Shown here: positions 11,921 to 12,666 of the stretch, in pieces
Position numbering within the stretch: the stretch's first letter is position 1
Layout of the letters: each line of letters begins with the position of its first letter
DNA from: a virus
Taxonomy: Duplodnaviria > Heunggongvirae > Uroviricota > Caudoviricetes
Direction: 5' to 3' (one strand)
Length of the DNA: 17,331 bases
IMG/VR virus record: IMGVR_UViG_3300036790_000223
Translations under genes and position numbers: made by a program
The notes under the pieces: generated by a model
Databases searched by the model: none
The model's input: the letters and a program-made list of their open reading frames with translations, nothing else
What the model was told of the DNA's origin: nothing

Positions 11921-11992
11921 ACCCCCCGGCGGGAATCGAACCCGCTGCGCACCGCTTTAGAGGCGGCTGCTCTCCCGTTGAGCTACGGGGGG
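11921..11992 (-). tRNA. tRNA with anticodon CUA (amber suppressor)
   Basis: Full cloverleaf: CCCCCCG-TA-GCTC AACGGGA GAGC-A-GCCGC CT[CTA]AA GCGGT-GCGCA-GCGGG TTCGATT CCCGC-CGGGGGG-T. CCA is not encoded. Confidence 0.93.
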
Positions 11993-11995
11993 CAG

Positions 11996-12019
11996 AGGCA
12001 GGAGCCGGAGCCCCTGCCT
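11996..12019 (-). other. Stable RNA hairpin just upstream of the tRNA
   Basis: A-GGCAGGGGC UCCG GCUCCUGCC-U. Perfect with one G-U pair on the - strand, but mismatched on the + strand. No U tract. Confidence 0.6.
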
Positions 12020-12023
12020 GTTC

Positions 12024-12323
12024 TTACACAGCCACAGGCTGCTCGTCAATGCGCTCCCGCAGCTGCTCGTTCTGCTCAGCAGACCGAGCGGTGCGGTACT
12101 CATCAGCGGTCAGCCCGCGACCGGCCGCGTTGATCGTCCGCAGCTGGAACCGCTGCGAGACGACCCGGCGGTTCAGCACGTCGAGCGCCTGACGCTGGGC
12201 GTCACACTTGCGCTGCAGCCACCATGTCGCGACCGGGACGTTCCCCTTCAGCTGCTCACGCAGGTGGAGGTTCTCATCCAGGGCCTCGTTCAGGCGGCGG
12301 CGCAGCTCCTGTATGTCATTCAC
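12024..12323 (-). CDS. Coiled-coil hypothetical protein (99 aa)
   Basis: GTG start with SD GAGGGGG; heptad-like helices; TAA stop. Confidence 0.75.
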   Translation of the reverse strand: MNDIQELRRRLNEALDENLHLREQLKGNVPVATWWLQRKCDAQRQALDVLNRRVVSQRFQLRTINAAGRGLTADEYRTARSAEQNEQLRERIDEQPVAV

Positions 12324-12666
12324 TTGTCTTCACCCCCTCTCTGGTCAGAGCGAGGGGGTACTTACGGGTGAGGCGCGCAGCACCAGGTTCCAGCGCAACA
12401 GCGGTCAGTGCGTGACCGAGGTCGGGCTCAAAGAACGCTGTGGTGCGTGCGCCGGTAGCGTCGGCGGCCTCCAGCAGGCGGAACAGCTCGCCTTCGCTGC
12501 CTGCATCGAGCAGGGCCAGCGGATAGTCCCAGGGCTTGCACTCTGGGTAGCAGCGGGCAAACTCCAGTGCAGCATGAGCTGCCTGAACAGCCTGATCACC
12601 CGGTGCCAGATCGGCCCGGGTGACCAGGTAGAATTTGCCCTAGAGGTGGTCTTCCTTTTCCTTCAC
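12316..12666 (-). CDS. Peptidyl-tRNA hydrolase II (Pth2)-like protein with in-frame amber at codon 9 (116 aa on readthrough)
   Basis: MKEKEDHL*GKFYLVTRADLAPGDQAVQAAHAALEF...FFEPDLGHALTAVALEP...YPLAL. TAG at 12642-12640. GTGA-coupled start. No ATG/GTG/TTG lies between the TAG and the first conserved strand. Confidence 0.8.

Follow-up and report, generated by a model that had tools for sequence, protein, structure and literature searches.

What does a phage gain from a gene whose whole conserved domain stands behind a stop codon? The question is raised by a peptidyl-tRNA hydrolase-like (Pth2-like) gene on the minus strand of a 17,331-nucleotide stretch of Caudoviricetes DNA (IMG/VR record IMGVR_UViG_3300036790_000223, hereafter the window), which comes from a large soil actinobacterial phage and carries TAG as codon 9 of this gene. 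A tRNA with a CUA anticodon (tRNA-CUA) is encoded downstream on the same strand. The reading that we favour, and to which we give a probability of roughly 70% on the strength of sequence comparisons, is that translation of the Pth2-like gene needs suppression of this amber codon by the co-transcribed tRNA-CUA. Dozens of distant phages with an otherwise normal code show this pairing too, and in these the enzyme is probably made only when the stop is overridden. The elements in question are the following.

12316 to 12666, minus strand: Pth2-like gene, 116 codons counting the TAG, closed by TGA at 12318-12316.
12643 to 12666, minus strand: eight-codon leader V-K-E-K-E-D-H-L, read directly from the DNA; the leaders of relatives vary in length and sequence.
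12640 to 12642, minus strand: in-frame TAG, codon 9, next base G; kept throughout the six-member clade of the window and, among 63 dereplicated homolog loci, in 34.
11921 to 11992, minus strand: tRNA with CUA anticodon, called by ARAGORN and scoring 61.3 bits against the Rfam tRNA model.

The first thing to settle is whether the TAG is real. The gene starts at GTG 12666-12664, which shares the letters GTGA with the stop (TGA 12665-12663) of the preceding 55-amino-acid gene C, and its codons read GTG AAG GAA AAG GAA GAC CAC CTC TAG GGC AAA TTC TAC CTG, continuing past the TAG (12642-12640) as G-K-F-Y-L-V-T-R-A-D-L and onwards. Start and amber are thus where the original prediction had put them. 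The frame is otherwise intact and, as had also been claimed, offers no rescue start, the first in-frame ATG, GTG or TTG past the TAG coming 103 codons on. The end of the gene, earlier placed at 12340, has to be moved, since the frame continues to the TGA at 12318-12316. The stretch 11500-13300 is present in contigs from two soil-metagenome runs of different studies (depth 12 and 9), one of which may be the source of the window. Between these assemblies there are two differences across 1801 nt, both synonymous third-position changes (in the gated gene GAA to GAG at codon 93, and in the gene upstream CGG to CGA). The TAG stands unaffected in both and is therefore no assembly error. Among the sequencing runs matched in a search for the window's stretch there was no RNA run. 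No other gate-like TAG that lacks a rescue start was found elsewhere in the window.

Is the TAG, then, private to this phage? We fetched 80 IMG/VR loci of the family and scored 83 in all, of which 63 were left after dereplication at 85% amino acid identity. A locus was counted as gated if a start and 1-7 further codons were followed by TAG, 0-9 codons and then K-L-Y-x-[VI]-T-R-x-D-L; the window, with 8 leader codons, TAG, G and then K-F-Y-L-V-T-R-A-D-L, fits the module pattern of a start, 1-8 codons, TAG, 0-9 codons and K-[LF]-Y-x-[VI]-T-R-x-D-L. Among the 63 loci 34 are gated and 26 have a normal start. A same-strand tRNA-CUA lies within 3 kb of 32 of the 33 gated loci with enough flank, as opposed to 5 of 25 ungated loci (Fisher p = 5e-10, a value that overstates the independence of the loci, as weighed below). 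A comparison proposed in the original prediction, whether homologs keep a TAG before K-x-Y-x-x-T-R-x-D-L together with a tRNA-CUA, has therefore come out clearly positive.

The surroundings of the TAG are patterned as well. The next base in the 34 gated genes is A in 19, G in 14, C in one and T in none, a purine in 33 of 34; in E. coli, amber suppression is favoured by a purine following the TAG. Their own stop codons are divided between TGA (17) and TAA (17), with TAG in 0 of 34, whereas TAG is the stop of 8 of 26 ungated genes. Within gated genes TAG keeps to the leader, with only 3 occurrences in 3755 body codons. It occupies the position of the start codon in ungated homologs, both distances having their mode at 3 codons before the conserved K, and the upstream signals, either a Shine-Dalgarno (SD) motif or a TATGCT -10 box at a distance of 7 nt, are placed for the leader ATG, not for the TAG. 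From the TAG through the end of the first strand of the fold (beta-1), 23 of the 34 gated lineages contain no ATG, GTG or TTG, and often there is none for 40-100 codons. The GC content of gated loci ranges from 23% to 69%.

Pth2-like genes appear to be the single recurrent client of such gates. When a second client was sought in 38 loci with GC of at most 0.55, gate-like patterns numbered 26 for TAG (15 Pth2-like, 3 homing-endonuclease fusions and 8 unrelated) versus 14 for TGA and 10 for TAA, and no second recurrent gated gene family was found in these loci. The fusions come from three low-GC phages (L006:1939-2688, L069:5233-5997 and L031:5246-5983), in which an HNH/NUMOD3 homing-endonuclease open reading frame (ORF) directly upstream of an intact gated gene is fused in frame behind a second leader, a TAG and about 22 Pth2-like N-terminal residues (to Q-A-V-Q), so that the endonuclease too stands behind an amber gate. 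The insertion site appears to be the site that codes for the conserved Q-x-x-H-A. Separately, 11 distinct stretches of one 1244-residue database protein (P0041) align with the Pth2-like query; this may reflect several Pth2-like domains in tandem, or else an artefact of read-through or of assembly.

Among the closest relatives the arrangement is the same. The two closest homologs (L001 and L002; 60% identity, from a collection of 5.8 billion proteins) are annotated as starting at V-T-R. Their DNA reads ATG GGA ACG GAA CCG TAG GTA CGC ACG TAC CTG GTG in L001 and ATG GAT CAC ACC TAG GGC TGC TTC TGC CTG GTG in L002, and the position of the TAG is that of the window: TAG, four codons, L-V-T-R. Downstream of it both have a homolog of the window's gene E and then a tRNA-CUA (two copies in L001). 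Close homologs thus carry both the TAG and the tRNA, where a private nonsense mutation would have left them with neither. In both, TATGCT lies 7 nt 5' of the leader ATG (L001:3290-3320, L002:300-330), which suggests leaderless actinobacterial transcripts.

Together with L060, L004 and L070, the window and these two form a high-GC clade (SH-aLRT branch support, an approximate likelihood ratio test, 95). All six members are gated and have a tRNA-CUA; path lengths among them exceed 1 substitution per site, and their leaders, of 2-8 codons, are of unrelated sequence. A neutral TAG would not outlast such divergence, and on the reading that we favour the gated gene is selected, not broken. The window is the clade member without a rescue start; the others have one.

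What the gate holds back is a 107-residue Pth2-fold domain, whose first strand begins 3 residues past the TAG. As a single sequence the protein falls below the cut-off for Pfam PTH2 (PF01981; E = 0.004, 17.7 vs 23 bits). A profile built from 89 homologs and compared with solved Pth2 chains matches 2zv3 at E = 2.5e-10, and many of the homologs carry a precomputed PF01981 assignment. The AlphaFold model, made from the homolog alignment, has a predicted local distance difference test score (pLDDT) of 94.4, and the top 13 Foldseek matches in the PDB are all Pth2 or Bit1 structures (template modelling (TM) score 0.72-0.74, probability 1.00). The sole low-confidence part of the model is residues 1-10, the leader and TAG position (pLDDT 65). 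Strand beta-1 comprises residues 12-17 and the TAG is residue 9; the conserved domain therefore lies wholly behind the amber, as had been claimed, and a start farther downstream would truncate the fold.

The family keeps R-x-D-L and Q-x-x-H-A, and the Glu E80, Q28, H31 and T88 are invariant. The active site of Pth2, placed by the Sulfolobus Pth2 literature at the G-K Lys and the D-A-G Asp, is not retained in the window's protein, which has D24 in place of the Lys and E80 in place of the Asp. Across the family the Lys position is variable, and in the window D24 lies within PGDQ, as the original prediction had noticed; the Asp position aligns with the invariant Glu. We call the protein Pth2-like on the evidence of the modelled fold, its hydrolase activity being putative.

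The proposed suppressor is a clean tRNA. ARAGORN and Rfam agree on it, and its start is separated by 323 nt, on the same strand, from the stop of the gated gene, close to the distance of about 320 nt first reported. It folds as a canonical cloverleaf with a 7-nt anticodon loop, CUCUAAA, that has U33, CUA at 34-36 and a purine at 37; further features are C1-G72, U73, a short variable loop and no encoded CCA. Compensatory changes are seen at 14 of 20 stem pairs when the window's tRNA-CUA is compared with those of its relatives, all of which keep CUCUAA in the loop. The closest tRNAs in phage databases are tRNA-Arg and tRNA-Lys at 75-80% identity, comparison with tRNAs of the same phage gives scattered best matches, and the bodies of the tRNA-CUA are highly diverse. 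The two copies in L001 (3977-4125) stand side by side, the first with an imperfect D arm (45 vs 56 bits) and possibly a decaying duplicate. We infer that the tRNA-CUA is expressed, processed and charged and that it outcompetes release factor 1 (RF1).

Taken together, these observations suggest the following mechanism. The ribosome would initiate at GTG 12666, coupled to the stop of gene C, and translate an eight-codon leader of no fixed sequence up to the UAG. Where RF1 acts there, only a short peptide would be released; where the UAG is instead read by the tRNA-CUA, encoded at the cassette's 3' end, the ribosome would go on into the 107-residue Pth2-fold domain. The output of Pth2-like protein would then be set by the abundance and charging of the suppressor tRNA relative to host RF1. 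Because the gate sits in a disordered N-terminal leader, any inserted residue should be tolerated, an irrelevance of residue identity that the diversity of tRNA-CUA bodies fits, and failed suppression would yield no truncated domain. Placing tRNA and client mRNA on a single transcript could create a delay or threshold element, and the purpose that we favour is a delay or AND gate, by which an activity of the peptidyl-tRNA or ribosome-rescue type is coupled to when, or how strongly, the suppressor acts. The conditional amber gate of the original prediction is thus supported in its architecture, while readthrough itself is something we infer, and RF1 limitation, defence and timing are its conjectured inputs.

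A more specific form of this idea can be advanced tentatively. The orphan tRNA-CUA and the TAG-led Pth2-like gene of standard-code phages might be a self-contained translational sensor or timer, in which readthrough reports the charge of the suppressor against RF1 and so sets a tRNA-linked hydrolase that clears peptidyl-tRNA of stalled or read-through ribosomes, or N-blocked aminoacyl-tRNA produced by host defence toxins. If that were true, such suppressor tRNAs would exist chiefly for the sake of the gate, which would then be no by-product of code change.

Several observations weigh against dependence on suppression. At least 6 genes of the window still end in TAG, among them mini-genes for zinc-knuckle proteins, and all of these would be lengthened by a strong suppressor, so that any suppression has to be weak, timed or tolerated. 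The discriminating features of the tRNA, C1-G72 and U73, matched no standard bacterial isoacceptor in our tRNA comparisons. The catalytic Lys of Pth2 is absent, which leaves the hydrolase function of the product a prediction. The tree of this short protein (113 columns) is poorly resolved: gate state changes at least 6 times on the best tree, but only 1 change is forced by supported branches. A paired-contrast test of co-evolution has 1 pair on supported branches, too few for power, and for both these reasons the Fisher test above overstates independence. Finally, in 11 of the 34 gated lineages, including the nearest relatives of the window, there is an in-frame GTG or TTG inside beta-1; some relatives, and likewise the cluster C mycobacteriophages with a GTG directly after the TAG, may not depend on suppression at all.

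These last cases are the natural ground of a rival account, in which the TAG merely closes a tiny upstream ORF, the Pth2-like domain is made by re-initiation or from a non-canonical start, and the tRNA-CUA is linked for some other reason. Besides the start codons in beta-1, it can point to the arrangement NTG-TAG-GTG in cluster C, with an SD motif spaced for the second GTG, and to a CTG at codon 14 of the window. However, canonical starts are missing through beta-1 in 23 of 34 gated lineages and in the window itself, which has GTC at the position of its relatives' GTG, so that the alternative named in the original prediction, a start after the TAG, finds no canonical codon here, and a start at codon 14 or 15 would lose half of that strand. 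The residues between TAG and beta-1 (e.g. G-D-K) are the same as in ungated homologs, which suggests that they are translated. Re-initiation moreover leaves unexplained the purine after the TAG, the avoidance of TAG as the genes' own stop and the linkage to tRNA-CUA, and we consider it unlikely. Initiation at the UAG by the tRNA-CUA itself was also considered and rejected: C1-G72 is paired, the anticodon stem lacks the three G-C pairs of an initiator at its base, and in every gated locus an in-frame start precedes the TAG by 1-7 codons, uninterrupted by any stop and often with an SD motif or leaderless -10 box placed for it.

Might the phage instead be recoded for TAG generally (like code 15), the gate being one sense TAG of many? 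Recoded phages are the best-known carriers of phage suppressor tRNAs (bioRxiv 10.1101/2021.08.26.457843), and our survey of the phage covers 17 kb of a genome of about 134 kb. Within these 17 kb, however, TAG is absent from the approximately 3300 codons of the large structural genes (portal, MuF and others), and it closes at least 6 genes, so that the window shows neither the many sense TAGs nor the loss of TAG as a stop that mark a code 15-type genome. Low-GC gated loci have 0-1 TAG-split ORFs per 12 kb, no excess over the TGA and TAA controls, and in gated genes TAG is limited to the leader. General recoding is thus very improbable.

We think no better of the possibility that the function lies in the UAG-terminated leader, which would be a minigene shedding short peptidyl-tRNA in the manner of lambda bar, with the full-length protein incidental. 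The leaders are certainly short (2-9 codons, often ATG-AAA/AAG-TAG), very short ORFs promote drop-off of peptidyl-tRNA, and dropped peptidyl-tRNA is the substrate of Pth. Such a minigene would not lead one to expect the purifying selection seen on the downstream domain in frame with the leader, nor the linkage to tRNA-CUA and the suppression-friendly context. Decay of the gene into a pseudogene, or an error of sequencing or of assembly, is scarcely credible: gene callers do truncate or skip such genes, and many database homologs "start" at M/V-T-R-A-D-L, but the TAG is present in two assemblies, the frame is intact with a pLDDT of 94, and 34 dereplicated lineages keep the TAG.

How does the pair of gene and tRNA sit in its surroundings? 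By a codon-usage score trained on five long genes, both belong to a minus-strand block from about 13619 to 11595, flanked on the plus strand by portal-side genes ending at 11592 and by a MuF-like gene from 13630. In order, the block comprises an ORF of up to 124 amino acids, a hammerhead ribozyme, genes A, B and C, the Pth2-like gene, gene E, the tRNA-CUA, a 38-amino-acid zinc-ribbon gene and a 61-amino-acid gene. The further features are these.

13584 to 13615, minus strand: promoter-like element, copy 3, GGGGAAATAA, spacer, AACCCGTTTAC; presumed start of the cassette transcript.
13245 to 13619, minus strand: first cassette ORF, up to 124 amino acids; codon-usage score 0.60, weak match to phrog_636.
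13184 to 13242, minus strand: type II hammerhead ribozyme, full-length match to Rfam RF02276, 40.2 bits vs a gathering threshold of 37.
12967 to 13167, minus strand: gene A, 66 amino acids; phrog_1933 at E = 2e-27, DNA similar to mycobacteriophage genes.
12830 to 12970, minus strand: gene B, 46 amino acids; codon-usage score 0.53, no family match.
12663 to 12830, minus strand: gene C, hydrophobic membrane protein of 55 amino acids; sequence read directly.
12024 to 12323, minus strand: gene E, predicted coiled-coil protein of 99 amino acids; no family match.
11885 to 11916, minus strand: promoter-like element, copy 2, adjoining the 3' side of the tRNA-CUA and preceding the zinc-ribbon gene.
11878-11762, minus strand: zinc-ribbon gene, 38 amino acids, in the unit begun by promoter-like copy 2.
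5268-5299, minus strand: promoter-like element, further copy with the same boxes.

Gene E is a conserved partner specific to the high-GC clade: by tblastn its homologs lie immediately 3' of the Pth2-like gene in L001, L002, L060 and L070, at 49-59% identity. No function could be drawn for genes B, C, E, F and G from Pfam, PHROGs or the ESM Atlas. The promoter-like element occurs in three copies with identical boxes (GGGGAAATAA, 9-10 nt, T/A-AACCCGTTTAC), each 5' of minus-strand genes, and the true start of the first ORF is probably downstream of its copy. Copy 2 stands 6-7 nt 5' of an ATG without an SD motif, a leaderless geometry. A scan of 11400-13800 with promoter and terminator consensus sequences found nothing. 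If the promoter-like elements are promoters, the gated gene and the tRNA-CUA would share one transcription unit with the tRNA last, which is the co-transcription that our reading supposes.

Like the gated gene and the tRNA-CUA, the hammerhead is on the minus strand, between the first cassette ORF and gene A. It has the core elements CUGAUGAG, GAAAC and GUC and three stems in the minimum free energy fold, and is predicted to cut after GUC near 13216/13215; the 3' product would start with the stem III hairpin. The original prediction had included a hammerhead upstream in the same cassette, and the ribozyme is real (40.2 bits), but none was found in 9 related loci, so that it is an accessory of the window's phage and lies outside the conserved module.

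TAG is the stop of none of the 8 cassette genes, in contrast to the at least 6 other genes of the window that it closes. Among the latter, at 2473-3105 on the minus strand, are three tandem paralogous mini-genes for DnaJ-type CxxCxGxG zinc-knuckle proteins, each with its own ATG and linked in one frame via TAG (TAG-GAG-ATG, TAG-ATG); amber suppression would fuse them. Their shared frame and stop could be explained by tandem duplication of a unit that is a multiple of three.

It remains to ask whether the arrangement resembles anything known. In prfB, the gene of RF2, an early in-frame UGA autoregulates expression through +1 frameshifting and senses the gene's own product. Shared with prfB is a conserved early in-frame stop whose output is decided between termination and an alternative decoding; here, by contrast, the escape would come from a dedicated suppressor tRNA, and the product is no release factor. 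Engineered amber AND gates, such as supD tRNA with an amber-interrupted T7 RNA polymerase, share the logic that output requires both mRNA and suppressor tRNA. These are synthetic and use two promoters, whereas the phage pair apparently forms one transcription unit, which would make it act by delay or threshold, not as a gate with two inputs.

The product itself can be set beside archaeal and eukaryotic Pth2 (PF01981; 2zv3, 1q7s, 1xty, 3erj), with which it shares the fold (TM 0.72-0.74) and the motifs R-x-D-L, Q-x-x-H-A and T-A-V; it differs in the variable position (D24) in place of the G-K Lys, in the invariant Glu E80 in place of the Asp and in its sub-cut-off Pfam score. PTH2 is known as a member of the tRNA-array toolkit of large phages, where it is seen as an ordinary ribosome-rescue accessory (PMC5966550; PMC7824862), and neither of these papers mentions a TAG in the PTH2-like gene or a link to a suppressor. 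The PTH2-like genes of cluster C mycobacteriophages and jumbo phages belong to the same protein family (39-40% identity). In two cultured mycobacteriophages of clusters C1 and C2, I3 (L085, 2474-2482, ATG-TAG-GTG) and ScoobyDoobyDoo (L086, 1471-1479, GTG-TAG-GTG), a TAG stands at the start of the annotated "peptidyl tRNA hydrolase", and a tRNA-CUA, annotated as tRNA-Pyl(cta), follows 180-300 nt downstream. These have a usable GTG right after the TAG, unlike the window, and may represent a vestigial or minimal gate; they offer a related arrangement in a culturable host.

The current explanation of phage suppressor tRNAs is a change of code across the genome, and their standard-code carriers have had no identified target. 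Xanthomonas phage XacN1 is such a carrier: it uses the standard code and has two CUA tRNAs, in its terminal repeats, for which read-through of gene-end ambers was considered and no target was found (PMC5852040). It shares with the window a tRNA-CUA in a standard-code phage; here the target would be a TAG at the 5' end of a gene. In XacN1 (L083, 1958-2797) and in Stenotrophomonas phages CM1 and RAS14, a Pth2-like domain forms the C-terminal part of a longer ORF (ORF364, 279 amino acids), which has no TAG and no tRNA within 2.5 kb.

A full-text literature search found no published description of a TAG-gated Pth2-like gene. A conserved single client, with its stop where any residue would be tolerated, would give orphan suppressor tRNAs a concrete and testable function, and would be a natural case of a gene controlled through programmed nonsense suppression and a tRNA dedicated to it. 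There is also a consequence for annotation, since gene callers truncate or miss gated genes, and tRNA-CUA is labelled tRNA-Pyl in GenBank records. To the family the window adds a member without a rescue start, the clade partner gene E, a tRNA-CUA beside its client and a hammerhead that is not part of the module.

The comparison with code 15 brings out best what is particular to this locus. In crAss-like, Lak and other gut phages, suppressor tRNAs recode TAG to Gln (bioRxiv 10.1101/2021.08.26.457843; PMC9523058), and the word "hydrolase" does not occur in the preprint of these two. Common to both systems is a phage tRNA-CUA that reads UAG in a standard-code host, with UAG-containing genes proposed to depend on the tRNA. 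In the code 15 phages, TAG is found in many late, structural and lysis genes, GC is low and TAG stops are depleted. Here, by contrast, there is a single recurrent client with one TAG in a leader of 2-9 codons, and TAG is still a stop. The gate is thus related to programmed nonsense suppression by phage tRNA, and belongs to neither the code 15 nor the prfB systems.

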